DNA from: Bacillota bacterium
GTDB lineage: Bacteria; Bacillota; DTU025
NCBI GenBank assembly: GCA_050951805.1
Contig: JBMNJT010000008.1
Coordinates: 259,061 to 323,060, forward strand
DNA: 64,000 bases
Direction: 5' to 3'
The position numbers and the translations under genes are program-made. Each line of letters starts with the position of its first letter. Within the stretch, counting starts at the first letter, position 1. The notes below the pieces were generated by a model. The model was given only the letters and a program-made list of their open reading frames with translations, was not told the origin of the DNA and searched no databases. Below are positions 20,652-41,251 of this stretch, in pieces.

Positions 20652-22214
20652 ATGCTAGTGAAAGCAGCGTTCCGGAGGGAGATTATGATGGTTAAGTCAG
20701 ACAAACGTCGACACAAAGGCCAGGATGACTTCGGGTCGAACCGAAGATCTCGGGCGCCTTTGGATGGGCGTCGGCAACTCAAGAAAGGACTACGGGGCGA
20801 TTCCTCTGTAAGCGAGGCAGAAGTTGATTGTTATGCACCAGTCGGGCCCGGACAGCAACTGGCTTTGACCATACATGGACTGACAAGTGAAGGCGAGGGT
20901 GTGGGACGCGCCAATAGTTTTGCGGTTTTCGTCCCTGGAGCTCTTGTTGGCGAGGAGATCGTGTGCACTGTGGAGACTGTGAAGAAGAACTTTGCCCGCG
21001 CCAAGCTTGACAGGGTAATTGTTCCTTCAGAGGAACGCGTTGAGGCAGTGTGCGATCTGTACCCGGCCTGTGGCGGGTGTCAGCTGCTTCACCTGAGCTA
21101 TGAAGGACAGCTGGCCGCGAAGAGGCAGAGGGTTGTGGATGCCGTTGCCAGAATTGGTGGGCTGGAGGAAGTAACGGTCCATCAGGTAATCGGCATGGTT
21201 GAGCCGTGGCGGTACAGAAACAAAGTGCAGTATCCTGTGGGGTGTTGTGGTGATCAATTGGTGACGGGCTGTTACATGAGCGGAAGCCACGAGGTTGTGC
21301 CCACCGAGGATTGCTATATACAGCACCCGGTGACCATGGGAGTAGTCGCGACTGTGCGTAGGCTTGCCGGAGAGTTCGGGCTTTCTGTGTATGAGGAAAA
21401 GTCGCATCGGGGGTTCTTCCGCCATGTGCTAGTCAAGTATGCCTACGGTACTGGCGAGGTAATGGTGGTGCTGGTAACCAATGGGGTTGGTTTCCCCGGA
21501 GGCCGAGGCGCCGAGTTCGGCAGCAGGATCGCTGCTGGGCATCGTGAGGTGAAGAGCGTAATACAGAACGTGAACATATCTCGTGGGAGCGCGGTGCTTG
21601 GAAGAGATAACGTAGTCCTGTGGGGAGAGGAGACTATAACTGACACCGTCGAAGATCTGGCTTTCCGTATATCGGCAACGTCGTTTTACCAAGTAAATCC
21701 CGTCCAGACTGTTACACTCTACAGAAAAGCTCTTGAATATGCCGGGCTCAATGGTACAGAGCGGGTGCTCGATGCATACTGCGGTGTTGGGACGCTTAGC
21801 CTGTTCTTGGCACGCGCAGCACGAGAGGTGTATGGGATAGAGTCAGTGGGAGCGGCTGTGCGTGATGCCAGGGCTAATGCAGATCTGAATGGAGCAGATA
21901 ATGTCCGGTTCATTGTCGGCCGAGTTGAGGATGTGCTTCCAAGGCTTGTGAGAGAGGGGCTGGCTTTTGATGTGGCAGTAGTGGATCCTCCAAGGTCGGG
22001 GTGTGATCCGGCGGTTCTGCAGGCATTGGCAGGAAAGGGGAGCGGCGGAGCAGGGGTAGGTAGAATCGTCTATGTGAGCTGCAACCCGGCTACCATGGCT
22101 AGGGATCTCAAGATTATGGGTGGACTGGGGTATACGACTTGCGAAATTCAGCCCGTGGATATGTTCCCTCATACATTCCACGTTGAGACGGTGGTATTGA
22201 TGTCAAGACTGTAA
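20652..22214 (+). CDS. rlmD: 23S rRNA (uracil-C5)-methyltransferase, RumA/RlmD type
   Basis: N-terminal TRAM-like domain. Fe-S cysteines (CDLYPACGGCQLLHL). SAM motif DAYCGVGTLSL. VDPPRSG. Catalytic YVSCNP. The stop coincides with the GC-to-AT compositional break. Confidence 0.85.
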   Translation: MLVKAAFRREIMMVKSDKRRHKGQDDFGSNRRSRAPLDGRRQLKKGLRGDSSVSEAEVDCYAPVGPGQQLALTIHGLTSEGEGVGRANSFAVFVPGALVGEEIVCTVETVKKNFARAKLDRVIVPSEERVEAVCDLYPACGGCQLLHLSYEGQLAAKRQRVVDAVARIGGLEEVTVHQVIGMVEPWRYRNKVQYPVGCCGDQLVTGCYMSGSHEVVPTEDCYIQHPVTMGVVATVRRLAGEFGLSVYEEKSHRGFFRHVLVKYAYGTGEVMVVLVTNGVGFPGGRGAEFGSRIAAGHREVKSVIQNVNISRGSAVLGRDNVVLWGEETITDTVEDLAFRISATSFYQVNPVQTVTLYRKALEYAGLNGTERVLDAYCGVGTLSLFLARAAREVYGIESVGAAVRDARANADLNGADNVRFIVGRVEDVLPRLVREGLAFDVAVVDPPRSGCDPAVLQALAGKGSGGAGVGRIVYVSCNPATMARDLKIMGGLGYTTCEIQPVDMFPHTFHVETVVLMSRL

Positions 22215-22631
22215 GCCTAGATTTTACTGGGTTTGCGGGATTACATCTAAGTTATCTACTCGACCTAAGGAGGTAAAATGAGTACATGGTAACATGTCGA
22301 TGGTATATTTTTATGCGAAAAATAAGCCTGAAATTAGATAGGGTTGAGTTGATAGTTTAGATAACGGGCATTTTTCATAGGGTTGAGGAGACAGGATGGA
22401 TATATCATCCAATACGTGTTATCGGTATTTTTAGTTTCTATATGTGGCTTTCCATAAAAAAATAAAAAACCTCTTACGAAATGGGATTATCGCTCTACAT
22501 GGAAAATCAATACCGCAATTTATCAATAGATAGGTATATCCTGCAAATAATATTGCGATCACAATAAAAAATACTGAAATTGCATAATAGTAAGTGTATG
22601 CTATAAATATAGGACGATGGAGGTGAAATAC

Positions 22632-22859
22632 GTGCCGGTAAGCTACAAAAAGCTGTGGAAACTGTTGATCGATAAAGACATGAAGAAAAAAGACCTTTGT
22701 AAAGCAGCAGGCATAAGTTCATCGTCTATAGTTAAGCTCAGCAAAAATGAGAATGTGACTACCGGAGTACTGGTCAAGATTTGCAAGGCGCTTAACTGTG
22801 ATATCGGAGATATCATGGAAATTGTTGATGGGCCGGATGAACAGCGCGACTGCAGGTAA
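22632..22859 (+). CDS. XRE-family helix-turn-helix transcriptional regulator
   Basis: PVSYKKLWKLLIDKDMKKKDLCKAAGISSSSIVKLSKNENVTTGVLVKICKALNCDIGDIME is a typical small Cro/C1-type HTH. GTG 22632 follows GGAGGTGA. It is the first gene of the AT-rich island, co-oriented with BREX. Confidence 0.75.
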   Translation: MPVSYKKLWKLLIDKDMKKKDLCKAAGISSSSIVKLSKNENVTTGVLVKICKALNCDIGDIMEIVDGPDEQRDCR

Positions 22860-22896: not shown

Positions 22897-23340
22897 TTGG
22901 GTACGTTAATAAAGAGTTCTCAATTCAGTAAAAAAATGCTTGAGAAAACAAATACACCGATTATACTTTGCTCTTCTGCGCCAAGATTGAAAAAGATTAT
23001 TGCCGAAGCTGGTTATCAAGAGCTCAGACTTAATGGATTATTGGCTGAAGCCCTTGTAAAAAAAGATGCAGCTATCAGGCCGCAGTTTGTTAGCGATGAA
23101 GCGATAAGAATTGTATCGTCCATACAAGGCCCGATTTTTCTGACAGACTACGAAATGCTGTTTGACCCGAGGTACAGCATTGATGTTATCAGATTTTTTT
23201 ATGAGCTGTCACGCAGAGCAAAAATTGTTATAAAGTGGTGCGGCACGTTGGACGATAACCACTTGGTATATGCAACACCGGCTTATAGGGATTTTCATTC
23301 ATATAACATTCATGACTATGATATAACTTGTGTAATCTGA
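22897..23340 (+). CDS. brxF: BrxF-like small protein (type 3 BREX)
   Basis: About 147 aa and directly upstream of the large P-loop ATPase, which is the position and size expected for BrxF. Only a degenerate Walker-B-like hhhhD (IFLTDYE) is visible and no clean Walker A. The assignment rests on synteny. Confidence 0.5.
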   Translation: MGTLIKSSQFSKKMLEKTNTPIILCSSAPRLKKIIAEAGYQELRLNGLLAEALVKKDAAIRPQFVSDEAIRIVSSIQGPIFLTDYEMLFDPRYSIDVIRFFYELSRRAKIVIKWCGTLDDNHLVYATPAYRDFHSYNIHDYDITCVI

Positions 23341-23354
23341 GGGGGTTTATTTTG

Positions 23355-26300
23355 ATGAAATACGCAGATTTGATAAACTTCAATCCAATCGAAAGCATTA
23401 TCCAGCTTACGGCGGCTAATGACAAGAAAGAAGCAATAAATCTGGTTAAAAGCTATGTCATGTCCGATGATATGGCGGACAAGCTAACCAATAATATGCT
23501 TTCACAGCTTCGGTTAGATGATGTGGTAGACAATAAAGGTGTTTTGCTGGTAGGTAACTACGGTACAGGTAAATCACACCTTATGTCGGTCATTTCTTCA
23601 ATAGCATACGATGCCGAAAACCTTGACTATGTACAAAACAAAAAGTTTGCCGAGGCTGCCAGGATCATTGCGGGGAAGTTTGAAGTTCTGCGTATTGAGA
23701 TAGGCGCATCAAAAATGTCCCTCAGGAACATCATCCTGACAAAAGTAAAGCAGGATTTTGCTGAACGTGGGCTCATCTTTGACTTCCCTGATGAAAAGGA
23801 TATTATCTCAAATAAAGATGTGCTCCTGACCATGATGGATTTGTTTTCATCCAAATATACCGACAAAGGATACCTGATTGTGGTGGATGAGTTCCTCGAC
23901 TATCTTGGCGGCCGTAAAAGCCAGGAGATTAAGCTCGACTTGGGCTTCATGCGCGAGCTGGGAGAAATTATTAAAACTTCCCGTTTAAGAGCTATTTTCG
24001 GAGTACAGGAAAAACTTTTTGATAACCCCAGCTTTTCATTTGTATCCAATACTTTAAACCGGGTAAAGGATAGGTTTGAGCAAGTCATCATTCGTAAGGA
24101 AGATACGGCCTATGTTGTATCTGAAAGAATACTGAAGAAGACTCCTGAACAGAAGGCGCTGATCCGTGAGCACTTGCAAAAGTTCTGCAGTCTGTATACC
24201 AATATGTCGGAGCGCATGGAGGAGTACGTTGACCTGTTCCCTATTCATCCTTCATATATTGAAGTTTTTAACAAGATTTACATTATTGAGAACCGTCATA
24301 TACTAAAAAACATTTCGGAGATCATCAGGCGGATACTTGACGATGAAATTACTGATGAATCTCCCGGCATTGTATCATTTGACAGCTACTGGTCCTTTAT
24401 CAAGGAAAACCTTGCCCTTAAAACAGATGCCAATATTAAAGAAGTCGTTGAAAAGAGCGGCATGCTGGAGGATATCGTCAACCGTTCATTTCCTAAACGT
24501 CTTTATAAACCTTTGGCCTTGCAGATAATATATGCTTTAAGCGTACATAGATTAACCACCGGTGACATCAGTATCCGTGCGGGACTTACTGCAGAAAACC
24601 TAAGGGATGACCTCTGTTTATATTTAAAAGGCATGCCAGACCAAAGCTCGGATACTTTGCAATCTTTGATTCAAACGGTTCTGAAGGATATAATGACCAC
24701 TGTCAGCGGGCAGTTTATTGAACATAATGCAGATAACGGCCAATACTATCTGGACTTGAAAAAAGATATCGACTACGACGAAAAAATCACGCAAAGAGCG
24801 GCTATTATGGATGATGACAGTCTGAATAGCTATTTTTATGATGTAGTTTATTATTGCTTAGAGTGGGATCAGAAAGAATATGTTGATAATTTCAAAATCT
24901 ATGAACACCGGTTAAACTGGGTGTCTCATGCTATTTTTCGCTCAGGCTACCTATTCTTTGGCACACCTGAATCGCGTCCGACTGCTCAGCCGCCAGAGGA
25001 TTATTACATATACTTTATTCCTCCCTATGGCAATGAGAGCTATACGGATGACAAGAAGGACGATGAGGTCTTTTTCCTGTTTAAACCCAACGAAGACTTC
25101 AAGAACACGCTGAAGTTATATGGTGCTGCTCAAATACTGAAAGATTTGGCCGAAGAAAAAAATAAGCCTGCCTATCAAAACAAAGCTGAAGTTTTCAAGA
25201 AAAAGCTGACGAAATACCTGAGCGAAAATAAGAATACTTGCTTTGAAGTAATCTATAAGGGCGAAAAGAAGCAGCTGATGGAAGTGATGAAGGGACAATA
25301 TAAGAGCACCAACCCGTTCAAAGAAACCATTGATCTGGTTGCTTCCATCTGTTTGGACGAATACTTTACGAAAAAGTATCCTGAGATGCCGAAATTCAAA
25401 ATTCAGATTACGCACCGCAACCGGGCAGATATTATCCGTGCAGGCATTGACAGGTTTGCAGGGCGAAAGAACCAACAGGCAAACGCCTTGCTTGAAAGTT
25501 TTGATTTACTTGACGGTGAAAAAATTACCGTTCAAAACTCCAAGTATGCACAATACTTTATCAAAGAGCTGGAAAAGATTCCTGCCAAAGCAGTTATCAA
25601 TTTCAGTGACATTTATACTGAAGTTCAAAATAAAGATGAATATTACCTAGACAAGCGGTTCGGAATCAGCTATGCTCTTTTGCCAATTGTCTTGCTTGCA
25701 TTGGTTCATACAGGCCATGCCGTCATTGCTTTAAGGAACGGCACTACCCTGACTGCCTCTGATTTGGAATCATTGCCCAAGATATCAGCCCTTGATATCT
25801 ATGAGTTTAAGTACATTTCCAAGCCGAAGGACATGCAGCTGGCAGAGTTGGTCAGGCTGTATGAGCTGCTGGAGCTCCCTGTTGGCCTTATCAACAATCC
25901 TGCCCAGCGGGAGGCCGGGCTTGAACAGATGCTTGCCAGAGCACAGGAGATGGCCAATGTTGCGGTCAGGGCCAACAGCAAGCTGAACGGAGAATTTGAG
26001 CTTTGGGGCGAACCGCTGATTGCCGACCATCTTGCTTCGGATTATAAGGCTTCTGCTAAGAGGGTGCTGGACATATTTGGGAACTTCCAGAGCAGGTTCA
26101 ATACCGTGGCCAAGCTCAATAACTTTAATTACACAATGGAACAGATTGAGCAGCTTGGCAAGGATATTGCTGCATCAAAAATTGTTCTGGAATACGAAAA
26201 ATTCAGGAACGACTGCCTTGCCAATGTCAATTACATGATGAATTTGGAACGCATGGAGCTTGGTGCTGCCTTAAGAGCAGAGATTGAAGCCGCCAAGGAA

Positions 26301-26993
26301 AACTTCCGCAAGATTAGAGATGACATACCTCAGGACATGAGCGGCGAGGCTGCTGCAGCGGATGTGAACAGTCTGCTGGTAAAAGTCAAAAACCAGTATA
26401 TTGACATCTACTTTGCAGAGCATCAGAAAAAACGTCTCGGAGTTTCCGATGGCCAGCGTAAGGGTGAACTGGTCGGGTCGGCAAAACTAGCTAATTTAAA
26501 GCGCTTGAAAGCAATCAATAATATTTTTTCGGCATCTAAACTGGACAGCATTGAAAAGGATCTGGCCGGGCTCAAAGTCTGCTATGAGCTGACTCCTGAT
26601 ATGCTGAAAACGAACCATTTCTGCACGAAATGCAATTTCTTGATGGGTGAAGCCGATATTCCGGTAAAAGGCAGGCTTGAAGAGATTGAAGACCGGATTG
26701 ACAGCCTGCTTGCCGAATGGACGAATACCCTGTTTAATACGGTTACGGACCCAACCATTGAAGAGCAGAAGCAATATCTAAGCCCGGAACAGCGCAAGGC
26801 AATTGATGCCTTTATAGAAACCAAGACCTTGCCCGAAAAGATTGACCAGTTCTTTATTACTGCTATTGAGGATCTGTTGCAAGGTTTTGAACCTGTCGCC
26901 ATTGCGGCCGACGAACTCATTGACAAGCTCGGTGCGTTCGGGCCGTGCGATATTGATACCTTCCAGCACAAACTGAAAGCCTCTGCTGGATAG
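23355..26993 (+). CDS. brxC: BrxC-like large P-loop ATPase (type 3 BREX)
   Basis: 1212 aa. Walker A LLVGNYGTGKSHL and Walker B LIVVDEFLDY near the N-terminus, followed by a long helical C-terminal region. Its position between brxF and the methyltransferase supports the call. Confidence 0.75.
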   Translation: MKYADLINFNPIESIIQLTAANDKKEAINLVKSYVMSDDMADKLTNNMLSQLRLDDVVDNKGVLLVGNYGTGKSHLMSVISSIAYDAENLDYVQNKKFAEAARIIAGKFEVLRIEIGASKMSLRNIILTKVKQDFAERGLIFDFPDEKDIISNKDVLLTMMDLFSSKYTDKGYLIVVDEFLDYLGGRKSQEIKLDLGFMRELGEIIKTSRLRAIFGVQEKLFDNPSFSFVSNTLNRVKDRFEQVIIRKEDTAYVVSERILKKTPEQKALIREHLQKFCSLYTNMSERMEEYVDLFPIHPSYIEVFNKIYIIENRHILKNISEIIRRILDDEITDESPGIVSFDSYWSFIKENLALKTDANIKEVVEKSGMLEDIVNRSFPKRLYKPLALQIIYALSVHRLTTGDISIRAGLTAENLRDDLCLYLKGMPDQSSDTLQSLIQTVLKDIMTTVSGQFIEHNADNGQYYLDLKKDIDYDEKITQRAAIMDDDSLNSYFYDVVYYCLEWDQKEYVDNFKIYEHRLNWVSHAIFRSGYLFFGTPESRPTAQPPEDYYIYFIPPYGNESYTDDKKDDEVFFLFKPNEDFKNTLKLYGAAQILKDLAEEKNKPAYQNKAEVFKKKLTKYLSENKNTCFEVIYKGEKKQLMEVMKGQYKSTNPFKETIDLVASICLDEYFTKKYPEMPKFKIQITHRNRADIIRAGIDRFAGRKNQQANALLESFDLLDGEKITVQNSKYAQYFIKELEKIPAKAVINFSDIYTEVQNKDEYYLDKRFGISYALLPIVLLALVHTGHAVIALRNGTTLTASDLESLPKISALDIYEFKYISKPKDMQLAELVRLYELLELPVGLINNPAQREAGLEQMLARAQEMANVAVRANSKLNGEFELWGEPLIADHLASDYKASAKRVLDIFGNFQSRFNTVAKLNNFNYTMEQIEQLGKDIAASKIVLEYEKFRNDCLANVNYMMNLERMELGAALRAEIEAAKENFRKIRDDIPQDMSGEAAAADVNSLLVKVKNQYIDIYFAEHQKKRLGVSDGQRKGELVGSAKLANLKRLKAINNIFSASKLDSIEKDLAGLKVCYELTPDMLKTNHFCTKCNFLMGEADIPVKGRLEEIEDRIDSLLAEWTNTLFNTVTDPTIEEQKQYLSPEQRKAIDAFIETKTLPEKIDQFFITAIEDLLQGFEPVAIAADELIDKLGAFGPCDIDTFQHKLKASAG

Positions 26994-27057: not shown

Positions 27058-29580
27058 ATGAAACTGACCAAGGAAGATATTGATAAGGTACGTCATATTG
27101 AGGGCTTCCCTATAGCCAAGGACGAGGATATTATTGCTCTATCCAATCCTCCCTATTATACAGCATGCCCTAACCCGTTTATTGAGGATTTTATAAAAGA
27201 ACATGGCAAGCCTTATGATGAAGCGACTGACGATTATCATAGGGAACCGTTTGCTGCGGATGTAAGCGAAGGTAAGAATGACTCGATATATAATGCCCAT
27301 AGTTATCATACTAAAGTGCCTTACAAGGCCATTATGCGTTATATTCTTCATTATACAGAACCAGGTGACATCGTATTTGATGGATTCTGTGGTACTGGAA
27401 TGACAGGTGTTGCTGCACAAATGTGTGAAAATCCTGAACTGGAATTCAAGGCCAAAATCGAAGCCGAAATGCCCTATGTGAAATGGGGGGCACGCAAAGC
27501 CATATTAAACGACCTTTCACCTGCCGCAACCTTTATAGCCTATAACTATAATACACCTGTTGATGTTGTAGAATTCGAAAAAGAAGCAAAGCGTATTCTT
27601 GCTGAATGTGAAAAAGAATGTGGGTGGATGTATGAAACGCAGCATACAGTTGACGGTAAGCTGCAGTATGGAATAGATGAAAAGCCGATAATAGGACGCA
27701 TCAACTACACGGTTTGGAGCGACGTGTTCATCTGCCCCACCTGTTCCAATGAAATTGTGTTTTGGGACGCGGCTGTTGACAAGAAAAATGGCAAGGTCAA
27801 TGACACCTTTTTTTGCCCTCATTGCCGCAGCGAGCTGACCAAACGCAGCTGCGCACGAGCCCAGGAAACACATTTTGATACACGGCTGAATGAATTTGTC
27901 ACCATGGCCAAGCAGGTACCGGTTTTAATCAATTACTCGGTGGGTAAGAAACGGTTCGAAAAAAAGCCGGATGAGTTTGACCTGGCGTTGATTGAAAAAA
28001 TTGATAATATGGAAATACCTTATTGGTATCCGACGGATGAATTGCCAAAAGGAGATAAAACACGTGAGCCGATACGCCTGGGAATTACCCATGTGCATCA
28101 GTTTTATACGAGAAGGAATTTGGCGGTATTGGCAACATATTTAAGTAAAATTGCATCTGTAAAGTATATTTTATCTGTCACTGCTTCATTGTATCGTTCT
28201 ACAAAAATGTATAAATTTACTTTGGACCGAAAAATGGGTACCGTTAGCGGAACACTGTATATACCTTCCCTTAATGTCGAAAATTCACTATTTAAGTTAC
28301 TTGATCGAAAGATAAATGATAGTTCTAAGGCATTGCAGATTACTCAGAGCTTTCAAAACTTTATACAATGCTGCTCAACTGTTAATTTGTCAACAATACA
28401 GGAAAATACAATAGATTATATATTTACTGATCCTCCATTTGGCGGCAACCTAAACTATTCCGAACTGAACTTTATATGGGAATCATGGCTGAAAGTATTT
28501 ACCAACCAAAAACAAGAAGCTATTATGAGCACTGTTCAGGGAAAAGGATTGCTGGAGTATCAGTCGCTAATGACTCAATGCTTCACTGAGTGTTACCGCA
28601 TCCTGAAACCGGGCCGTTGGATGACGGTGGAATTCCATAATTCACGAAACTCCGTCTGGAACGCTATTCAGGAATCATTGATGCGAGCAGGCTTCATTAT
28701 CGCGGATGTGCGAACAATCAACAAGCAGCAAGGAAGTTTTAACCAAGTTACGACCACGTCGGCTGTTAAGCAAGACCTTGTAATTTCAGCATATAAACCA
28801 AAGGAAAGTTTTAAGCGTGAGTTTATTTCCCACGCTGGAAGCGAAGAAACAGCATGGAGTTTTGTACGACAGCATCTTGAAAATTTACCCGTAGTTGTTG
28901 TTAAGAACGGAAAAATTGAACTAATAGCAGAACGCCAGGCATTCCTGCTCTATGACCGTATGGTGGCGTATCATATTATGAATGGAATAGCTGTTCCATT
29001 GGACGCAACAGACTTTTATAAAGGCTTGGACGAAAGGTTCTTGAAGCGTGACGGGATGTACTTCCTGGCTGACCAAGTCAACGAATATGATACGGCCCGT
29101 ATTGTTAACGATGTGGAGCCGGTTCAGTTTGAGCTTTTTGTCACCAATGAGAAGTCTGCCATTGCATGGCTTTACCAGCAGCTTGAGACACCGCAGACAT
29201 ATGCCGAACTCCAGCCGAAGTTTATGCAGGAAATAAAAGCCTGGGATAAGTTTGAAGTAAGGCCTGAGCTGGCAGTATTGCTTGAAGAAAATTTCTTGCA
29301 GGACGATAAGGGCAGGTGGTATATTCCGGACATTACAAAGGCTGCCGATGTGGCCAAGCTCCGGGAAAAGAAATTGCTTAAAGAATTCGAGGGCTATTTA
29401 GCTACCAAAGGCAAGCTCAAACTCTTTCGTACGGAAGCAATAAGGGTGGGCTTTGCAAAGCTCTGGGCTGATAAGAACTATAAGCTAATTGTCGAAACCG
29501 CGGAACGCTTGCCAGAAAATGTTATCCAGGAAGACGACAAGCTGCTTATGTACTATGATATCAGTTTAGGAAGGATTTGA
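27058..29580 (+). CDS. pglXI: PglXI-like DNA methyltransferase with internal zinc ribbon (type 3 BREX)
   Basis: SAM-binding FDGFCGTGMTG. Catalytic FTDPPFGGN (an amino-methyltransferase D/N-PP-F/Y motif). Zinc ribbon CPTC...CPHC. 840 aa. Confidence 0.8.
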   Translation: MKLTKEDIDKVRHIEGFPIAKDEDIIALSNPPYYTACPNPFIEDFIKEHGKPYDEATDDYHREPFAADVSEGKNDSIYNAHSYHTKVPYKAIMRYILHYTEPGDIVFDGFCGTGMTGVAAQMCENPELEFKAKIEAEMPYVKWGARKAILNDLSPAATFIAYNYNTPVDVVEFEKEAKRILAECEKECGWMYETQHTVDGKLQYGIDEKPIIGRINYTVWSDVFICPTCSNEIVFWDAAVDKKNGKVNDTFFCPHCRSELTKRSCARAQETHFDTRLNEFVTMAKQVPVLINYSVGKKRFEKKPDEFDLALIEKIDNMEIPYWYPTDELPKGDKTREPIRLGITHVHQFYTRRNLAVLATYLSKIASVKYILSVTASLYRSTKMYKFTLDRKMGTVSGTLYIPSLNVENSLFKLLDRKINDSSKALQITQSFQNFIQCCSTVNLSTIQENTIDYIFTDPPFGGNLNYSELNFIWESWLKVFTNQKQEAIMSTVQGKGLLEYQSLMTQCFTECYRILKPGRWMTVEFHNSRNSVWNAIQESLMRAGFIIADVRTINKQQGSFNQVTTTSAVKQDLVISAYKPKESFKREFISHAGSEETAWSFVRQHLENLPVVVVKNGKIELIAERQAFLLYDRMVAYHIMNGIAVPLDATDFYKGLDERFLKRDGMYFLADQVNEYDTARIVNDVEPVQFELFVTNEKSAIAWLYQQLETPQTYAELQPKFMQEIKAWDKFEVRPELAVLLEENFLQDDKGRWYIPDITKAADVAKLREKKLLKEFEGYLATKGKLKLFRTEAIRVGFAKLWADKNYKLIVETAERLPENVIQEDDKLLMYYDISLGRI

Positions 29581-29589
29581 GGTGGCTCA

Positions 29590-30150
29590 ATGATTACCTG
29601 GTTAAACGCAAATCAAGGCTTTGTAATGTGTTTGCTTACATTTGTATATGTTCTGGCAACAATTGCAATTGTAGTTATGAATAATATGACCATTAAAGAG
29701 ATGAAAGAAGCGAGAGCCGCTGAGAGCCGCCCTTACGTTTTTGTAAGCCTTCATAAAGATCCCAGAGATGTGTGCTTTTATCTACGTGTGAAAAACCACG
29801 GAAAGACCGGTGCAATAATAAATAGGCTACAAATTACACCTATTATCAAACTTGTGGATATTGAAGAAAAGAGTAATTTCTTAGAAAGAAGTATCTTGGC
29901 TCCAAACCAAACGCTTCAATTTATTGTTTTGGAAAAATGGGAAGAAACTTGTGAAAAGGATTATAACGTGGAAATTGAATATACAATGGTCGGGGATGCA
30001 AATAGTAGCTTTCACGAGCAGTATGCTTTGGTGGTTCAATATGCACATCAAATGGGATATACAGACAGGAGCAATAGCAATCTTAGTAACTCGGAGAACT
30101 CATTAAAAAGTATTGCGGAACACTTGGATTCAATTAGAAGTAAACTTTAG
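29590..30150 (+). CDS. hypothetical single-pass membrane protein embedded in the BREX operon
   Basis: GAGGTGG RBS 7 nt upstream of the ATG. N-terminal hydrophobic helix (FVMCLLTFVYVLATIAIVVM) followed by a beta-rich soluble domain of about 150 aa. No family recognised. Confidence 0.6.
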   Translation: MITWLNANQGFVMCLLTFVYVLATIAIVVMNNMTIKEMKEARAAESRPYVFVSLHKDPRDVCFYLRVKNHGKTGAIINRLQITPIIKLVDIEEKSNFLERSILAPNQTLQFIVLEKWEETCEKDYNVEIEYTMVGDANSSFHEQYALVVQYAHQMGYTDRSNSNLSNSENSLKSIAEHLDSIRSKL

Positions 30151-30176
30151 TATTATGAAACGCAAAGGAATTGAGT

Positions 30177-32846
30177 ATGAAGAATATTGGAGATTACGTT
30201 TTTGATAAAACTAAAAATGAGCGTGTGCAGGTATTGGAGATCAGCGAAGTATGGGGCTTTGTGTCTTACAAGGTGTTTAATGCTTCTACCGGGACAGTTT
30301 ATAAGTTATCTGCTGAGGACATTTGCGCCGAAGCACCCGAAGAAAATTTTAATGAGAGCTATCTCCGATATGTTGCCCTGCTTTCAAAAATCAAGAACGA
30401 AACCTCCGCAGGCATCCTGTCAAAACTATCGAGCGGTATCATCCCTTTGCCGCACCAGTTGCACGTCCTTAACCGGGCTTTATCAAACAATAAGGTGAGA
30501 TACATATTGGCGGATGAAGTGGGTCTCGGAAAAACTATTGAAGCAGGACTCATTATTAAAGAGTTAAAGACCAGGGGACTTATCAAGCGGATACTGATTG
30601 TCTGCCCTACCGGTCTGGTAACCCAATGGAGTCTGGAAATGCAGGACAAGTTCAACGAGAAGTTCCATGTTATCCTGCCGGAAGATTATGATGCCATTCG
30701 TAAGATAACTGGAAATGAGGATGTTTACGGGCAGTTTGATCAGGTTATCTCACCTATGGATTCGATCAAGCCCTTGGAAAGACGGGTTGGCTGGACGGAA
30801 GAAAAGATTGCCCAATACAATGAGGAACGAATTTATTCCATCATTAACAGCGGCTGGGATTTGATCGTGATAGACGAGGCCCATAGGGTTGCCGGGAGCT
30901 CGGGGGAAGTAGCCAGACACAAGCTTGGCAGACTCCTGGCTGCAGCCAGCCCGTATCTTTTGCTATTAACTGCGACACCTCATAATGGCAAAACGGAACC
31001 GTTTTTGCGGCTAATACGACTGATTGATGAAAAGGCCTTCCCCAATATCAATGCTATTGTTAAGGAGCAGGTAGCTCCTTATGTTATAAGGACGGAAAAG
31101 CGTGAAGCCATAGACAATAACGGCAATAGGCTTTTTAAAAATCGAACTACCAGGGTTATTGAATTGCACTGGGACGAACGGCATTCCATGCAGCGCAGGC
31201 TGTATGAAATGGTGTCGGATTATGTCTCCCGAAATTATAATAAGGCCATGCGCAATCGAGGCAAAAACATGTGGTTCATATTTCTGCTCATTATGATGCA
31301 GCGTCTGGTCACCAGCAGCACAAGCGCGATCCGGGAAAGTATGGAACGGCGAGTGAAAGTCCTGGAAGAGCAGGCATTCAAATATCAATCCATGACCGAA
31401 GAAGAATTTGCCGAGATGGAATTGGAAGAAAACATGGAGGATGCCATTGCTGCCATTTCTCTGGACATCAAGGAAGAAATTGCCCGGCTTAACGATATTA
31501 TTGCGGTTGCCAGGCAGGCAGAGTTTCAATATCTTGATGTCAAAGTTGAGCCGTTGCTTGAAATTATCGACGACCTATTTGCTGAGGACCGGCAAAGAAA
31601 GGTTATTATTTTTACGGAATTTGTGGCGACCCAAAGCTACCTTGTCAAGCTGTTGAAAGACCGGGGGTATTCAACATCCATTCTCAACGGCAGCATGAGT
31701 ATTGAGGAACGGAATGCCGTGCTGCAGGAGTTTAAAACGGAAACGAACATCCTTATTTCGACCGACGCCGGTGGTGAGGGCCTAAACCTGCAATTTTCCA
31801 ACTGCATTATTAACTATGACCTGCCCTGGAATCCAATGAAGATAGAGCAGCGTATCGGGCGCGTTGACCGTATCGGGCAGCAAAGAGATGTGATAGTTTA
31901 TAATTTTATTCTGGCTGATACTGTTGAAAGCCGTGTAAAAGCTGTGTTGGAAGAAAAGCTTTCCGTTATCCTGAAAGAGATTGGCATCGACAAGTATTCT
32001 GATGTACTGGACAGCGAAGCTGCTGAGCTTAACTTTACGGATGCTTATATGAAATCAATCCGCAATCCTAAAAACATTGAGTTGAACATTCGCCCGGTTG
32101 AGGAGGATTTGAAAAAGCAGGTTCAAAACACCATGCGCATAAAAGACCTCATCAAGGAAGAAAAAGACCTTGCCTCAATGATTGGGACAGGATCTGCTTT
32201 TGACTTTGAAGCTGCATTGCGGCAGATGGTCGCGTACTATGAAAACTATAAGGGCAATCCCTACTTGCCTATCGAGCATCTCAGCATTAATGACCCTGTG
32301 ATTGTTGGCCATCTGAACAAGGAAATCGAGCAAGACTTGGGAGGTCAGCTTTTCAATGTTTCAATAAAAGATTTTCCCAACGAAAAGGGCTTCTTTATGC
32401 TGTGGCGGATATCACTTACTCTTGACAGCCAGGGGCAGAAGATTATCCCCATTTTTATTAACCAGGATTTTATCCTGCGTCCCATGGCGGGCAAAAAGAT
32501 ATGGGAGGCTATTCTTGACCAAGAAAGGGTTATTACTGTTCGCGACGGGGAAAAGATCGATATAAAAACTCAGAATAAGCTCCTTACAGCGTCACAGGAA
32601 TTTGCTTACGACACTTTCTTAACGCTGAAAGCTGAACTGGAAAAAAGAAATGAAGAAACATACCGAAAGTATTTGTATGCTTTGAACCTGCGCATTGAGG
32701 CCGCGCAGCGAATAGGGATCGAAAATATCAGGAAGCACAAACTTATGGTCTTAAGCCGGGAAAAGGCAGATATAGAAGCTAACTATCAGGCGGGCAAGAA
32801 ATTCTGCCCTGACTTTAAGCCGGTATTGATAGTACATATGGAGTGA
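30177..32846 (+). CDS. brxHII: BrxHII-like SNF2/DEAH superfamily-2 helicase (type 3 BREX)
   Basis: Motif I LADEVGLGKTIEAG. Motif II DLIVIDEAHR. Motif III LLLTATP. Motif VI QRIGRVDRIGQ. There is a C-terminal extension of about 290 aa of unknown fold. Confidence 0.8.
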   Translation: MKNIGDYVFDKTKNERVQVLEISEVWGFVSYKVFNASTGTVYKLSAEDICAEAPEENFNESYLRYVALLSKIKNETSAGILSKLSSGIIPLPHQLHVLNRALSNNKVRYILADEVGLGKTIEAGLIIKELKTRGLIKRILIVCPTGLVTQWSLEMQDKFNEKFHVILPEDYDAIRKITGNEDVYGQFDQVISPMDSIKPLERRVGWTEEKIAQYNEERIYSIINSGWDLIVIDEAHRVAGSSGEVARHKLGRLLAAASPYLLLLTATPHNGKTEPFLRLIRLIDEKAFPNINAIVKEQVAPYVIRTEKREAIDNNGNRLFKNRTTRVIELHWDERHSMQRRLYEMVSDYVSRNYNKAMRNRGKNMWFIFLLIMMQRLVTSSTSAIRESMERRVKVLEEQAFKYQSMTEEEFAEMELEENMEDAIAAISLDIKEEIARLNDIIAVARQAEFQYLDVKVEPLLEIIDDLFAEDRQRKVIIFTEFVATQSYLVKLLKDRGYSTSILNGSMSIEERNAVLQEFKTETNILISTDAGGEGLNLQFSNCIINYDLPWNPMKIEQRIGRVDRIGQQRDVIVYNFILADTVESRVKAVLEEKLSVILKEIGIDKYSDVLDSEAAELNFTDAYMKSIRNPKNIELNIRPVEEDLKKQVQNTMRIKDLIKEEKDLASMIGTGSAFDFEAALRQMVAYYENYKGNPYLPIEHLSINDPVIVGHLNKEIEQDLGGQLFNVSIKDFPNEKGFFMLWRISLTLDSQGQKIIPIFINQDFILRPMAGKKIWEAILDQERVITVRDGEKIDIKTQNKLLTASQEFAYDTFLTLKAELEKRNEETYRKYLYALNLRIEAAQRIGIENIRKHKLMVLSREKADIEANYQAGKKFCPDFKPVLIVHME

Positions 32847-32851
32847 ATTTT

Positions 32852-34297
32852 ATGATAGAGAAACGGATAGCAGAGCTTTTTTCAATTCAATATGAAAAGC
32901 GGTTGCTGATATTTGATGCCGGTGGATTTTGTGCTGCCTTTGATTATACCAGGCTGCTTATTTCTCAGAATTTTGAGGTTATCCGGTATGAGGATATTGA
33001 AGCATTCCGGCTAAGGTATGAGCAAGAAATAAGGAATTCTGATAATAAATATGCGGTTATTGTTTGTTCCGACATATATGTGCCGTACGATATAAGGAAA
33101 CAGTTTTTTGAGGTTGAAATTTCTCTAAGAGGCATCTTTCCGAAACTTCATGAAGATACGGTACGCCGGTATATTAAAGACATTGACTTGATTAGCTTTG
33201 CCTATGGGGAGCTTTATTCGTCCTGTGACACCAGGGAAAAGACGGAAATATTTATTTCAGATACGGTCTTTTCAAAGGGAAATATAAAAAACTATTGTGA
33301 GCTAATGATAAAAAACCTTTTGCCTTCCGGCGACAAATCCGGTATTACTGCCAATGGCTGGATTGAGATTGCCCGTAAAAAGGCCTTGATTGATTATTAC
33401 GCTGCCAAAGCAAATATCTCGATCGATACGAGTTTTGTTGACGCGGAATTTGAAAAGTTTATATTTGATGGCTATCAAAAGCTTTCCGGTGAGACCAAAA
33501 AAGAGGCTCCTGCTATCTTGCCTAAAGTAATTGATTTTATAGCGCATGGTAAGACTGCACTTATTGTCGTCGATGGGATGTCGTTATTTGACTTTGAGAT
33601 AATCTCACGATATTTGGAAGGCATTGACTATGAATACCATTGTACTTATGCCCTAATACCAACGACGACGGCTATTTCAAGGCAAGGCCTGCTCAGCGGG
33701 AAGTATCCGCGTGAGTTGGAAAATCCTTTTACTTTAAGCCAAGAAGAAAAGGGCTTTATGGAGGCTGCCAAGAACAGGGGATATACCAAACAGCAAAGCT
33801 TATATGCAAAGGGCTACAATCCGCCCATTAGTCATTTTACAAGGTTTGCGGCTATTATCATTAATGATATAGACGATTTAGTTCACGGTCAAAAGCAAGG
33901 CCGTGTAGGGATGTATAATGACGTTTCGTTATTGGCAAAAAGCGGCAAGTTACAAACATTAATACAAGATTTATATTCACAAGGATTTAATATTTATATA
34001 ACATCCGATCATGGCAACACTCCCTGCATCGGAGCAGGAGCTATCCGCAATGCTGGAGTCGAGGTGGAAACCAGATCCAAGAGGATGTTTGTACTGAAAG
34101 ATTTTGCGGAAGAAAAGGATTCTTTTGGAGACAAAGTCGTGACTTATCCGGGATATTACTTGGATAAAGACTATAAATACTACGTCTGCGAGTCAGGTGT
34201 TTCTTTTGATAATAAGAATGAAGAAGTAATGACACACGGAGGCATCTCCATTGACGAGGTAATTGTCCCATTCATTAAAGTAAAGGCGGTAATTTAG
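32852..34297 (+). CDS. pglZ: PglZ-domain alkaline-phosphatase-fold protein (type 3 BREX)
   Basis: ALIVVDGMSLFDF, PTTTAISRQGLLSG and ITSDHGN motifs are typical of the PglZ/alkaline phosphatase fold. The start follows the helicase stop by a few nt. Confidence 0.8.
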   Translation: MIEKRIAELFSIQYEKRLLIFDAGGFCAAFDYTRLLISQNFEVIRYEDIEAFRLRYEQEIRNSDNKYAVIVCSDIYVPYDIRKQFFEVEISLRGIFPKLHEDTVRRYIKDIDLISFAYGELYSSCDTREKTEIFISDTVFSKGNIKNYCELMIKNLLPSGDKSGITANGWIEIARKKALIDYYAAKANISIDTSFVDAEFEKFIFDGYQKLSGETKKEAPAILPKVIDFIAHGKTALIVVDGMSLFDFEIISRYLEGIDYEYHCTYALIPTTTAISRQGLLSGKYPRELENPFTLSQEEKGFMEAAKNRGYTKQQSLYAKGYNPPISHFTRFAAIIINDIDDLVHGQKQGRVGMYNDVSLLAKSGKLQTLIQDLYSQGFNIYITSDHGNTPCIGAGAIRNAGVEVETRSKRMFVLKDFAEEKDSFGDKVVTYPGYYLDKDYKYYVCESGVSFDNKNEEVMTHGGISIDEVIVPFIKVKAVI

Positions 34298-35002
34298 ATG
34301 GCAAAAATAATTGGACTGTCCCGTTCCATTAGATTGGAATGGCTCAATAAAACTGTAGAACTCGTACTGGAGGGAAAGAACGAAACGCAAATTAAAGACG
34401 AATTGAACGAATACTTGTCCTTTGAAATAAAGAGCCCGACTGTTCTGAGAAAAACACGGGAAATCCTCATGAATATATGGGTGAGGACTCCTGAGGAACT
34501 TTCAACTTTAAAACAGCAAGCTTTAGAAGCTTATAAGGATGAGAAGTCGAATAAACTGGCATTGCATTGGAGCATGATGCTGGTTGCATATCCTGTATTC
34601 TCTGATGTGTGTGCTTTAATAGGCAAGCTCACTAACATCCAGGATACATTTGCGGCATCCTGGCTTAAGGAAAAGCTGTTTGAAATGTGGGGAGAACGGA
34701 CTACGCTGTTTCATTCCAGTGATAAGATATTGCAAACCTTGAAGCAAATTGGAGCTATTGAAAATGAGAAAGTTGGGGTATATCGCATAAAAAAGTACCC
34801 GGTTACCGATGTGAAAACCATACAGGTGTTGTTATTGGCCATCCTTCACTTAAGGGAAAGAGCCTACTATGAAATTGCAGAGCTTTCTTCGGTACCCCAG
34901 GCTTTTCCGTTTGAATACACTGTTTCACTCGAATGGCTGCATGACTCGGATTTATTTACGTTAAGTAACTTTGGCGGCAAAATTGTGTTAACAGTGGATT
35001 AA
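34298..35002 (+). CDS. brxA: BrxA-like protein (type 3 BREX)
   Basis: 234-aa helical protein. The start abuts the pglZ stop (TAGATG). It is the terminal gene, as in the canonical type 3 order. The assignment is mainly by synteny and size. Confidence 0.5.
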   Translation: MAKIIGLSRSIRLEWLNKTVELVLEGKNETQIKDELNEYLSFEIKSPTVLRKTREILMNIWVRTPEELSTLKQQALEAYKDEKSNKLALHWSMMLVAYPVFSDVCALIGKLTNIQDTFAASWLKEKLFEMWGERTTLFHSSDKILQTLKQIGAIENEKVGVYRIKKYPVTDVKTIQVLLLAILHLRERAYYEIAELSSVPQAFPFEYTVSLEWLHDSDLFTLSNFGGKIVLTVD

Positions 35003-35323
35003 TTAGCAGTGGAGAAATTATCTTCTCTCCCTAGTATAGAAGGAGTTGTATTAGGAGATTCACATATAAAAGGTACACCAAATTTATGATGCTGATTGCA
35101 ACTGCAAGGAAAGATTGAAGAAAGTAAATTGGTAATGTATTATAGAAAGAGTTAATGAAAAGAAATATCATTATGTTTTTGTTTATTCAGTTTTATTTTT
35201 ATTCAATTATTGCCATTACAAGGTATGCGATTATAACACTATTAATTGTAATTTGTGTAATGTTTAAATGTTTGACCCTGAAATGACGTGAACATAAAAA
35301 TCCAATAAAATCTATAGTCATTA

Positions 35324-35345
35324 ACACCCAAACGGGTGTTTTTTA
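35324..35345 (+). terminator. rho-independent terminator-like hairpin
   Basis: ACACCC-aaac-GGGTGT followed by a T run. It may overlap the left end of the neighbouring IS21 element. Confidence 0.5.
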
Positions 35346-35454: not shown

Positions 35455-36925
35455 ATGATCGGCATCGAACAATACCGAAAAATCCAGGAGTACAAAGCAC
35501 TTGGACTTGCTCAGACAAAAACCGCAAAAGCACTGGGGATAACCTATTCTTCTGTCAGCAAATACTGGAATATGAGCGAAGAAGATTATGTAAGGAAGCT
35601 GAAAAGGAAAGGTACCACATGGATAACTATCGTCAGTACATACTGGAACATCTGAAATTTGCCCACAAATGAGGGATACAAACATCTATCTCAAATTGGT
35701 GGAGGCCTTCCCTGATCTACAAGTTAAACGAGCTACATTCTACCGCTATATGAAAGCCTTAAGGGAACAGCACGGGTATCCGCATGCCAGTAAACGTAAA
35801 ACCTCACCCCGTGAAATTTCTCCGCCGGGATATGAAGCGCAGGCGGATTTTGGTCAATACAAACTTAAGGATATGTACGGGCGAATTGTACGAATATATT
35901 TCTTTTGCATGGTTCTGAGTTATAGCAGAATGAAATTTGTTTATTTTTCACCGGATCCCTTTACAACCAAAACAGCCATTAAAGCTCATAACTATGCATT
36001 CCAATATTTTGGAGGAAGAACACAGACTATTCTTTATGACCTTGACCGTGTCTATGTAGTCAGTGAAAATCTGGGGAATATCATATTCGTACCCACATTT
36101 GAAGAATATGTTAAGCGTATAGGTTACAGTGTTTCGCTATGTAGACCAAGAGATCCTCAAAGTAAAGGCAAGGTTGAAGAGGTGATTGGATACATAAAGC
36201 AAAGTTTTCTTGAGGGCAGGATATACACCGGAATTGATAGCCTTAACAGTGCTGCCCTTGCATGGTTAGATAGGGAAGGCAACGGGCGAATACATACTGT
36301 GACCAGAAAAGTGCCGCGTGAAATGTTCATGGAAGAGCAAAAATACCTGCTCCATGTCAAACCTTATTCCGAAGTATCAAGCACTGTTGCCTCCTTTGAT
36401 AAGGATGGAGTGGTAAGTTATAAAGGCAACCGTTATCAGATTAATACAGGTATGATGGATGCTCATAAACGCATTCGCATTGAAGATGATGGTGAAATGC
36501 TTTTGTTCTATGATGCTGAAACAAATGATTTATTGGCTAAATATCCAGTCACAGAAGATACCGGGCAGTTGTTCAAACCAGAAGAAAATTACAGCAGAGA
36601 CAGGGTTTCTTTAACCATCATAAAACAATATTTTGCAGAATACGAAATAGCTCAGGAATTCATCCGGCTTATGGAGTTACAGCAACCCAAATATTTTAAT
36701 TCCCATTGTATTCGAATAAACCGGATGACGAAGTTTTATACAATTGGACAATTGCTTGATGGAATAGAATACTGCATTGATACTGAACGCTGCAGTGCCT
36801 ATGAGCTTTTGGCTTATCTCATGTATCAGTACGGAGAGCATATAGCTAAGAAGTTTTTGCCGAATCAGCAGTATTTTAACCATTTGGCGAGGAGTAAAGA
36901 AATAAGGAGGGAAATCGATGGCTGA
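35455..36925 (+). pseudogene. istA: IS21-family transposase IstA, reading frame broken near the HTH/DDE junction
   Basis: The HTH N-terminus (35455-35655) and the DDE body (35669-36925) are in different frames. A third frame between them reads LDNYRQYILEHLKF (35619-35669), which is typical IstA sequence. This implies one or two indels. Confidence 0.7.
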
Positions 36926-37604
36926 TATAACAGAAATCCGTGAATTGGCCCAAAAGCTCAACCTTTGGAATATCGCAAGGGGATATATTGATTTGAATGA
37001 TGAGAAACTATCAAACCTTGACTATCTTAAGATGGTGTTAGAAAAAGAATTGGAGATTAGGGTCAGGCAAAAATACACCAAGCTGAGGAAGGCAAGTAAG
37101 CTTCCAAACAAAGCATTTGACGCATCGAATTCAAACAAGGGCTTAAAATGGCAGATTAAACAGTTATCCAACCTGACATGGCTTAAGGAAGAGCAAAACT
37201 TAATCCTGCTGGGAAAATGCGGGACGGGTAAGACCGGTCTTGCAGCGCAGCTTGGAGAAACTGCAATCAGCAATGGATATAAAACCTATTATGCGCCTTT
37301 TGATAATTTTATCGCAGTGGCAGAAAAGAAAGCCACAAATCCAAAAGCAGAAGCGATCTTTTCTTATATGCAGGAATGTGACTTAATTATTATTGATGAT
37401 GTCTTTTATGTGGAACCAACCAGGGCAGAACTGCAGGTTTTCTACCGGGCAGTTACCTTTCTTAATGAAACCAGAAGCATTATTTTTATAACCAATCGTG
37501 AACTGTCGGCATGGATAGATGCAGCCGAGGACAAGCACCTTTGCCAGACTTTATTGGACAGGATGACGGTCAATTGTCAGATTGTTCGTTTGACTGACAA
37601 GTAA
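36918..37604 (+). CDS. istB: IS21-family helper ATPase IstB
   Basis: Walker A GKCGTGKTGLAAQLG and Walker B LIIIDDV. The start overlaps the istA stop. Confidence 0.85.
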   Translation: MADITEIRELAQKLNLWNIARGYIDLNDEKLSNLDYLKMVLEKELEIRVRQKYTKLRKASKLPNKAFDASNSNKGLKWQIKQLSNLTWLKEEQNLILLGKCGTGKTGLAAQLGETAISNGYKTYYAPFDNFIAVAEKKATNPKAEAIFSYMQECDLIIIDDVFYVEPTRAELQVFYRAVTFLNETRSIIFITNRELSAWIDAAEDKHLCQTLLDRMTVNCQIVRLTDK

Positions 37605-37868
37605 ATAAAAACACTCACTTCTTTTTTAATAGGGGCAAATACCTCGTTTGAAAACAATGCCGAAAAACGGCTTAAAATAGATGCAAAAAATCTCACGAAA
37701 TTCAAAGAACTGCTTAACTTTTGAGATTTTCTGCAGTTTATAGGGTAGGGGGGTCTAAATCTCTACCGCTTTTCACCCCGGAAACGGGCGGGGGGTCACG
37801 CGCGAAAAATCGCAGTTTCAAACGGGGTATATCCCCTGTTTATTTTTACATGAATCGAGGTGATGTGT

Positions 37869-38421: not shown

Positions 38422-38603
38422 TGCATAAAACAAATTCAATCTTTCTTAGGGAACTAAGAAAATATAAAGACCATTTAACGAAGCAGCAGTTTAAGACTCT
38501 GCGGGGACAAGTAATAAACGGAGATTGTGAGGGCGCAAAAAAGGGTCTTAAGAAAATATTGAACAGGAGAATGCAGCATGAACATACAAAAAATATCTGT
38601 TGA
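38421..38603 (+). CDS. small hypothetical phage protein
   Basis: 60-aa basic ORF. Its ATG overlaps the TGA of the shifted terS frame. Confidence 0.4.
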   Translation: MHKTNSIFLRELRKYKDHLTKQQFKTLRGQVINGDCEGAKKGLKKILNRRMQHEHTKNIC

Positions 38604-39876: not shown

Positions 39877-39881
39877 GATTT

Positions 39882-41135: not shown

Positions 41136-41251
41136 AAATGTCCTTGCTTTCCCCTCAAAACAGAGCGTTAATGTACCCCACCAAAAAGGAAAGGTGGGAT
41201 TTTTTATGGGAATCAAAAATGTTTTAGCTTATTTGAGGGGAGGTGTATGGC

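Follow-up and report, generated by a model that had tools for sequence, protein, structure and literature searches.

How does a small gene for a membrane protein come to lie between the methyltransferase and the helicase of a type 3 BREX (bacteriophage exclusion) operon, and what might it do there? The question is raised by a 64,000-nucleotide (nt) stretch of DNA from a Bacillota bacterium (GTDB lineage Bacteria; Bacillota; DTU025), positions 259,061 to 323,060 of contig JBMNJT010000008.1 in assembly GCA_050951805.1, which is called the window below and is numbered from its first letter. The gene, here called X, encodes a protein of 186 amino acids (aa) and had been noticed from the letters of the window in an earlier note, the original prediction. 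The answer reached here is that X is very probably accessory, interchangeable cargo and not a core component of BREX, and that it is, with a probability that we put at roughly 45%, a mobile single-gene back-up module against phages, lodged in a slot of the type found in restriction-modification (R-M) operons. The slot, its walls and its guest are laid out as follows, where ORF stands for open reading frame.

27058-29580, + strand: pglXI methyltransferase gene, the upstream wall of the slot (PADLOC PglXI, E=0; Pfam N6_N4_Mtase)
29579-29585, + strand: GAGGTGG, a Shine-Dalgarno-like sequence, read from the sequence, that overlaps the stop codon of pglXI, its end lying 4 nt ahead of the ATG at 29590
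29581-30176, no strand: the variable cargo slot between pglXI and brxHII, defined by blastn breakpoints, alternative contents and empty-slot joints
29590-30150, + strand: X, an ATG-started ORF for a bitopic membrane protein of an unnamed family
30177-32846, + strand: brxHII SNF2 helicase gene, the downstream wall of the slot (PADLOC BrxHI/BrxHII, 1e-301)

Does X belong to BREX at all? When the window was compared by blastn with sister cassettes, that is, those whose BrxHII is about 95% identical to the copy in the window, DNA identity of about 90% was found to run until 29576-29587, at the pglXI stop, and to resume at about 90-94% from 30164-30185, at the brxHII start, with unrelated sequence between. 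What is held between these two points differs from cassette to cassette (loci other than the window carry L numbers).

Window, L009, L038 and L129-131: X
L062/L063: X, 93% identical and frameshifted by 1 nt in a poly-A run, followed by GajA
L123/124: SIR2 and HerA
L128: a 756-aa PDC-S06 protein with a PrrC-like C-terminal part
L125/126: a 190-aa protein with three transmembrane (TM) segments and two small ORFs
L120-122 and L127: a 65-aa ORF

X is absent from most sister cassettes and is not conserved in related BREX-3 loci, whose slots hold other genes or nothing; L125, for example, is syntenic with the window outside the slot. An empty slot is seen directly in four digester or sludge metagenomes, where contigs join 29574/29578 straight to 30187/30192 at a depth of 10-37, while X itself has a depth of 11-50 and the BREX genes on either side about 40-360. 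Because the slot varies or stands empty in sister cassettes, X is one of several interchangeable guests, and it gave no PADLOC or NCBIfam match as a BREX-3 core member, unlike all six neighbors, which have models of their own. Every alternative guest that can be annotated is a known defense gene (SIR2-HerA, GajA and the PrrC-like PDC-S06). The original prediction had described an ORF of 186 aa at 29590-30150, separated from pglXI upstream by 9 nt and from brxHII downstream by 26 nt, on the same strand and with its own ribosome-binding site GAGGTGG, and had called it extra to canonical type 3 BREX; these coordinates and this sequence are in place, and the empty-slot joints bear out the last point. 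The longest ORF of brxHII opens at TTG 30171, and the gap of 26 nt is kept because 889-aa database homologues fit a start of brxHII at ATG 30177.

The other guests deserve a word of their own. The 190-aa protein (L125:8100-8997) has three hydrophobic segments with weak Pfam matches to 8xMP and DUF4212 and is followed by two related ORFs of 50 and 57 aa, and the 65-aa ORF is found at L120:8788-8985 and L127:5788-5985; neither is related to X, and by hot-spot logic both may be regarded as further candidate defense genes. In two independent assemblies (L062:3624-4183 and L063:8001-8560) the copy of X is split by a 1-nt poly-A deletion near window position 29863, which may reflect true inactivation, slippage, or an error of sequencing or assembly; pseudogenization of X in these two loci was considered and given little weight, since a single-base poly-A loss may be an assembly error.

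Is X expressed with its neighbors? A metatranscriptome contig of 1,183 nt from an anaerobic digester covers 29470-30652, that is, the 3' end of pglXI and all of X into brxHII, at a depth of about 250, while a second run tiles 29536-30733 and a third covers 29506-29778, which fits co-transcription of X with pglXI and brxHII. Between about 23000 and 30938 no terminator-like site was found on the + strand, and X therefore lies inside the BREX transcription unit.

If X is a guest in BREX, where else does it live? Look-ups by genome, metagenome, viral and exact-protein searches gave 111 X loci in 79 clusters at 95% identity. In the close subfamily, defined by a hidden Markov model score above 200 together with the frameshifted L063, the upstream flank is informative in 26 contexts, and in 14 of them X comes zero or one gene after a DNA methyltransferase or specificity gene, in these layouts.

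hsdM-hsdS-X-hsdR, the commonest: L013, L020, L010, L019 and L041 (Limiplasma, two genomes; Dehalobacter; [Clostridium] fimetarium; one metagenome contig)
hsdS-X at contig ends: L015 and L064
hsdS, a 414-aa product, then X: L021
type IIG enzyme, a 76-aa ORF, then X: L001-4
HKD-SNF2 helicase with a type IIG-like methyltransferase, then X: L017 and L058
Eco57I-type methyltransferase, a 140-aa ORF, then X: L065
BREX: two of the 14 methyltransferase- or specificity-linked contexts

Among 28 genome loci with relatives of X, the window's own lineage alone is BREX. X is not specific to BREX: only one BREX cassette lineage carries it, and its relatives are mostly found in R-M operons of type I or type IIG, with others in integrative and conjugative elements (ICEs) and a phage. 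X is not kept in the slots of sister BREX-3 cassettes, and its relatives recur beside R-M genes. Similar layouts are met among distant members, with hsdR-hsdM-hsdS-X in a Verrucomicrobiota genome (L026) and hsdM-hsdS-X in L100. The distance from X to hsdS is -25 to +25 nt (L010, L013, L015, L019, L020, L026, L041 and L064), and hsdR begins 12-15 nt past X, so that the coupling to both is tight and probably translational. This recurrent placement between hsdS and hsdR suggests a functional tie to restriction systems. In all five X-bearing type I operons (L010, L013, L019, L020 and L041) HsdR is about 1,105 aa long with an N-terminal DUF4145, and on the viral contig L066 the gene before X encodes a 225-aa protein whose match to DUF4145 is sub-threshold; X and DUF4145 may be linked.

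How long has X been there? Protein identities within the type I lineage are as follows.

L010, L013 and L041 among themselves: HsdM 90-93%, HsdR 83-88%, X 81-89%
L020 against L010/L013/L041: HsdM 82-83%, HsdR 75-76%, X 55-60%
L019 against all others: HsdM 59-60%, HsdR 44-45%, X 45-56%

The identity of X tracks that of HsdM and HsdR, and X has therefore long been resident in that type I operon. In a neighbor-joining tree, drawn without bootstrap support, the R-M-linked X sequences fall into several separate clades, which indicates repeated moves of X between systems. The nearest relative of the BREX-linked X in this tree is the X of L006/L007, where a 224-aa multi-TM protein precedes X in a non-defense context and is kept in both assemblies (L006:9241-9921 and L007:240-914).

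What kind of protein is X? A word-indexed search gave 58 homologue clusters, nearly all full length (about 186 aa) and 44-99% identical, and a profile search in a space of 1.84 billion representatives gave 2,719 clusters with E<=1e-3, or 517 when the limit is set at E<=1e-10. Among phage families, phrog_9607 matches at 2.7e-16 over residues 20-176 and phrog_11802 at 3e-6, both of unknown function, and the BFVD matches are uncharacterized phage proteins only, one of them from Siphoviridae. Scans of Pfam, NCBIfam and PADLOC gave nothing significant, a line for NrdI in NCBIfam at E 0.06 being taken as chance, and a profile search of Protein Data Bank (PDB) sequences gave nothing at E<=1. Sixteen positions of the alignment are invariant, and they form two groups: one in the N-terminal tail and TM helix (N6, N8, G10, L16, T17, Y20, A23 and T24), the other, invariant or conserved, at the start and in the core of the globular domain (R47-P48-Y49, N69, G71, P84, P105 and Y131). 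X carries both the N-tail/TM motif and the RPY...KNxG core by which an unnamed family of TM-plus-beta-sandwich proteins can be recognized, and by sequence it belongs to this large family, which includes phrog_9607. The family, its architecture and its membrane location have no description in the libraries and papers that were searched. The parts of the protein can be placed on the DNA.

29620-29679, + strand: TM helix, residues 11-30, mean Kyte-Doolittle 2.75
29731-30030, + strand: Ig-like beta-sandwich, residues 48-147 (about 100 aa), 7-8 strands in the AlphaFold2 model, predicted local distance difference test (pLDDT) about 79
30088-30138, + strand: conserved C-terminal amphipathic helix, residues 167-183, AlphaFold2 pLDDT 50-67

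AlphaFold2, run with the family alignment, gave a pLDDT of 78.6 for the whole of X and 79.0 for the domain alone. The model consists of a short N-terminal turn, a helix at 9-45 that comprises the TM segment (11-30) and a stalk, the sandwich at about 48-147, a linker of low confidence, and a C-terminal helix at 167-183 that is near-invariant at N170, I175, L179 and I182. The original prediction, which had foreseen one N-terminal TM helix, a beta-rich domain of about 150 aa and no match to any family, was right on the helix and on the beta-rich nature of the domain and too generous on its extent, the sandwich being about 100 aa long and followed by the linker and the helix; as for the family, no curated one exists, and a large unnamed one does. 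The fold could thus be predicted, and Foldseek against the PDB, with the full and the domain-only model, matched it only to generic Ig-like sandwiches at E>=2.5e-3 and TM-scores <=0.4: adaptin (GAE) and GGA ear domains, C2, MSP, the cytoplasmic domain of Kir channels, the intracellular protease inhibitor Ipi of Bacillus subtilis, and archaeal pilins. With such weak and generic matches no function can therefore be read from the fold. Foldseek detected no catalytic fold in X, and since the matches are sandwiches of the peptide-binding type, the modeled domain looks like a protein- or peptide-binding module and not an enzyme.

On which side of the membrane does the sandwich lie? In the 181 family members with an N-terminal TM helix, the mean number of K+R is 0.36 in the N-terminal tail and 3.5 in the 15 residues after the helix, and 96% of these members have more K+R after the helix than before it. 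By the positive-inside rule an N-out/C-in topology is therefore predicted, with about 10 conserved residues outside and the sandwich and the C-terminal helix in the cytoplasm, so that the membrane-anchored component announced by the original prediction would face the cytoplasm, not the exterior, with its globular part. The tail that precedes the helix carries the conserved motif WLNxNQGF (residues 4-11). Within the helix, residues 16, 17, 20, 23, 24 and 27 share one face, and the conservation of this face (L16/T17/Y20/A23/T24/I27) suggests a surface for helix-helix packing and not a passive anchor. Two other ideas were rejected. X is not a type IV pilin or a protein with a class III signal peptide: in NQG/FVMCL position +5 is L and not E, the leader has no K or R, no pilus genes are found nearby, and the archaeal pilin matches are weak (E about 5e-3 to 1e-2, TM-score 0.29-0.37). 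A conserved disulfide was rejected as well, because the alignment shows no co-variation between C62 and C120 and hence no sign of an extracytoplasmic disulfide.

What, then, could such a protein do beside restriction genes? That X has a defense-related role of some kind seems, from its position, somewhat the better bet. Three roles had been offered at the outset, an added effector, a sensor and a hitch-hiking mini-defense gene, and the last is by far the best supported, the other two being possible as its mechanism. As a proposal, X would be a horizontally mobile module that occupies a permissive slot between the modification gene and the helicase or restriction gene of R-M-like operons. The sandwich, on the cytoplasmic side, would detect either a phage protein or inhibition of the neighboring methyltransferase or specificity complex; the TM helices of X would then oligomerize and compromise the membrane, and the damage would lead to abortive infection or growth arrest. 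Such a back-up layer would be a counterpart of RonA in Ronin and, as regards gene position, of PrrC in EcoprrI, and X is favored as a portable back-up layer because its closest functional precedents are guardians of restriction systems. By this analogy a guard or abortive-infection mechanism specifically is a tentative proposal, on balance somewhat unlikely, and the trigger and the disruption of the membrane are speculative. It is quite unlikely that X founds a new, widespread class of membrane-anchored guards that would watch over the methyltransferase/specificity modules of three unrelated restriction classes (type I, type IIG and BREX) and kill or arrest the cell once anti-restriction proteins of a phage disable them.

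Several points weigh against reading X as a back-up module. Its defense role is inferred from position, any toxicity or trigger would be conjectural, and its topology rests solely on the charge rule. The partner methyltransferases come from unrelated families (HsdMS, Eco57I/MmeI-like, and the N6_N4 type of PglXI), and it is therefore difficult to imagine one conserved physical cage for all of them. The family has no model in PADLOC v2. The RNA libraries may carry DNA, and the assembled contigs hold no strand information. Perhaps the junction of modification and restriction genes does no more than tolerate insertions. Moreover, 12 of the 26 close contexts lack adjacent R-M genes; these include ICE or type IV secretion system (T4SS) regions (L005, L011, L012 and relatives) and one viral contig, and other neighbors outside R-M contexts are Fpg-like, DUF1848, DUF3644, MIT_C PLD-like, BRCT and housekeeping-like genes. 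An all-against-all phmmer comparison of upstream neighbors found no recurrent partner outside R-M contexts, only DUF1848 twice. Most contexts of distant members are not recognizably defensive, with heterogeneous neighbors on mostly short contigs; for several of the lowest-scoring loci tblastn aligned the N-terminal TM region alone, and their contexts were counted neither for nor against. As a separate observation, the two X homologues preceded by a DUF1848 protein (L018:440-1390 and L117:363-1310) are only distantly related.

Could X be, not a back-up module, but an auxiliary R-M subunit that tethers the methyltransferase/translocase complex to the membrane or regulates it there, for instance so that restriction acts where DNA enters or self-restriction is tempered? 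Such a subunit would go well with the tight coupling to hsdS or pglXI, always before the helicase or nuclease gene, with the co-divergence of X with HsdM and HsdR down to 44% HsdR identity, and with a predicted cytoplasm-facing interaction domain that has no enzymatic fold. It goes less well with sister BREX-3 cassettes whose slot is empty or filled with unrelated genes, with copies of X that have no R-M neighbor in ICEs, a phage and other loci, with methyltransferase partners of unrelated families, and with the polyphyly of R-M-linked X in the neighbor-joining tree. X as a dedicated BREX subunit is not supported, and an auxiliary subunit in the broader sense is rather improbable.

It is very doubtful that X is a superinfection- or entry-exclusion protein that stops incoming DNA, of a phage or a conjugative element, at the membrane. 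Such a role would not explain why X is so strongly linked to the modification/restriction junction, only about 10 residues are predicted outside, and in 96% of members the globular part is predicted to be cytoplasmic, although X is a single-pass membrane protein whose short external tail is highly conserved. Homologues do lie in ICE/T4SS regions (L005, L011 and L012), and phrog_9607, phrog_11802 and the Siphoviridae protein in BFVD point to phages; nevertheless, tblastn gave one weak match in 50,697 phage records, near the genome end of Flavonifractor phage Cormatin, IMG/VR holds two X loci, and a tblastn search of plasmids gave no match.

Might X be a passenger without any role in defense, or a selfish, addiction-like gene in a junction that is transcriptionally active and permissive for recombination? 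About half of the close contexts and most distant ones are not beside R-M genes, X has no known domain and no PADLOC match, and the BREX-linked copy of L062/L063 carries its frameshift. Against this, 14 of 26 contexts have X zero or one gene past a methyltransferase or specificity gene, far more than any plausible background would give, and they extend over three R-M classes and at least two phyla; the annotatable alternative cargo of the slot consists of known defense genes, and the family is strongly conserved, with its 16 invariant residues, so that a mere passenger is hardly probable. Least of all can the ORF be a chance reading frame or an annotation artifact: its small size alone speaks for this practically negligible reading, already refuted by the 44-99% identical full-length homologues in 58 clusters (2,719 by profile), their conserved alignment and length, the confident AlphaFold2 fold and the RNA contigs that cover it.

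The operon around the slot needs a description of its own, since the features upstream of pglXI and downstream of brxHII complete the BREX cassette.

22617-22859, + strand: gene with a Cro/C1-type helix-turn-helix, heading the BREX cassette (Pfam HTH_26, E 1e-21)
22897-23340, + strand: brxF (PADLOC BrxF, 6e-17; NCBIfam BREX_3_BrxF)
23328-26993, + strand: brxC (PADLOC BrxC, E=0; Pfam DUF6079)
32843-34297, + strand: pglZ (NCBIfam BREX_PglZ_3, 264 bits against a cut-off of 250)
34298-35002, + strand: brxA (PADLOC BrxA, 1e-63)
35323-35340, + strand: first convincing terminator-like hairpin past the operon, after brxA

BrxF, BrxC, PglXI, BrxHII, PglZ_3 and BrxA together are a complete type 3 BREX set, and the sister cassettes L120 and L125 open with the same Cro/C1-type gene. 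With 484 aa, PglZ is short compared with the 642 positions of the BREX_PglZ_3 model, with residues 173-480 aligned to model positions 305-641, and its 264 bits barely exceed the 250-bit cut-off; a 481-aa form is present in all sister cassettes, so the short PglZ is a lineage feature and not a truncation. How mobile is this cassette? BrxHII homologues at 94-100% identity fill more than 120 protein clusters, whose labeled sources include Tepidanaerobacter, Pelotomaculum and a Porphyromonadaceae isolate, and the BREX-3 cassette is therefore very mobile. Between L009 and the window PglXI is 73% identical, BrxC 98%, BrxHII 95.5% and BrxA 100%; judged from these sequences, the variability of PglXI would fit swapping of its specificity domain. 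Directly downstream of brxA lies an IS21 insertion element (istA 35669-36925, istB 36918-37604), followed by a prophage-like block at 37860-50259 with these genes.

37860-38306: small terminase
38578-41135: two ParB-N6/N4 methyltransferases
42563-43540: amidoligase
44322-46103: TerL
47024-48379: portal
49051-50259: capsid

The order BREX, IS21, terminase, ParB-methyltransferase recurs in L125 and L127, and the cassette may travel with, or inside, a phage-like element. On the other side, the GC content falls from about 0.55 to about 0.40 at around 22200, just past a TRAM/tRNA(U5)-methyltransferase-like gene (20652-22214). A gene with a tRNA_U5-meth_tr domain also borders the BREX island of L125 and the unrelated X-bearing defense island of L001-L004, which suggests that the flank of this gene is a shared integration hot spot.

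Why should a gene of this size attract attention? Hot-spot logic has been a productive route to new defense systems, and a slot with precise borders, in a highly mobile BREX-3 cassette, that carries known defense genes in some copies and X in others marks X as a concrete anti-phage candidate from a family of thousands of clusters that has no annotation. X is a compact single-gene module, a well-defined candidate rather than a demonstrated system, and possibly a membrane-based counter to anti-restriction proteins. It remains to set it beside systems that are already known.

Effectors of the Cap15 type in CBASS (cyclic-oligonucleotide-based anti-phage signaling systems) consist of one or more N-terminal TM helices and a small all-beta ligand-binding domain, and activation presumably makes them oligomerize and disrupt the membrane. 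X shares the plan of TM followed by beta, yet it has one TM helix and a sandwich, not a barrel; the Foldseek searches gave no structural match to the Cap15 beta-barrel, and no CD-NTase/cyclase or other signal synthase was found in any annotated neighborhood of X. Superinfection-exclusion proteins of prophages, such as those of the Sie2009 and HK97 gp15 types, are small single-pass proteins carried on mobile elements. X is similarly small and single-pass and matches phage families of unknown function, but its domain is predicted cytoplasmic and the gene is mainly chromosomal and linked to R-M.

By position, the nearest counterpart is PrrC, a guardian of R-M that is encoded between hsdS and hsdR in EcoprrI and fires once the T4 protein Stp inhibits the enzyme; PrrC and PARIS both act as guardians of R-M (PMC12707154). 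X shares with PrrC and RloC the exact arrangement hsdM-hsdS-[guest]-hsdR, and in L128 the PrrC-like PDC-S06 protein fills the very BREX-3 slot that X fills in the window. PrrC, however, is a soluble ABC-ATPase with a tRNA nuclease, whereas X is a membrane protein with neither domain: neither Pfam nor PADLOC gave a PrrC match for an N-domain of the ABC-ATPase type (AAA_13) or an anticodon-nuclease C-domain.

By description, the nearest counterpart is RonA of the Ronin system of Escherichia coli ECOR55, a single-TM protein of 61 aa linked to hsdS/hsdM, which is lethal alone, neutralized by HsdMS and released by Ocr, ArdA or Aop1, and which has been proposed to be a membrane-acting cell-death effector caged by the methyltransferase complex (Silas et al., bioRxiv 10.1101/2023.04.06.535777). 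Both proteins are small, with one predicted TM helix and genes tight to hsdS, and X likewise has no enzymatic domain; the likeness is one of description and gene position, not of compared sequences. The differences are also clear. RonA is essentially a TM helix alone, whereas X adds a sandwich and a C-terminal helix to reach 186 aa; Ronin is a decoy locus without hsdR, whereas X lies in complete R-M or BREX operons, with hsdR directly after it in five type I loci; and X additionally adjoins type IIG and BREX methyltransferases. If X did found a widespread class of guards, which is quite unlikely, immunity by decoy or guard in the manner of Ronin would no longer be confined to a single E. coli locus but would exist as a broad, portable module among anaerobic Bacillota and further groups.

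Effectors that sit as accessories within R-M or BREX operons are of a kind already known. Back-up effectors in BREX loci include BrxU/GmrSD, PARIS/OLD, SIR2, HEPN and Schlafen proteins, all those catalogued in the 2026 survey being nucleases or NADases, and the terms 'transmembrane' and 'membrane protein' are absent there for BREX-linked genes (NAR 2026, PMC12839542). Like these, X is a non-core gene inside the operon that would serve as a second layer, and it would be their non-enzymatic membrane member; if this is true, a non-enzymatic membrane effector would be added to the biology of BREX and R-M, and with a widespread class of such guards BREX would have its first membrane effector.

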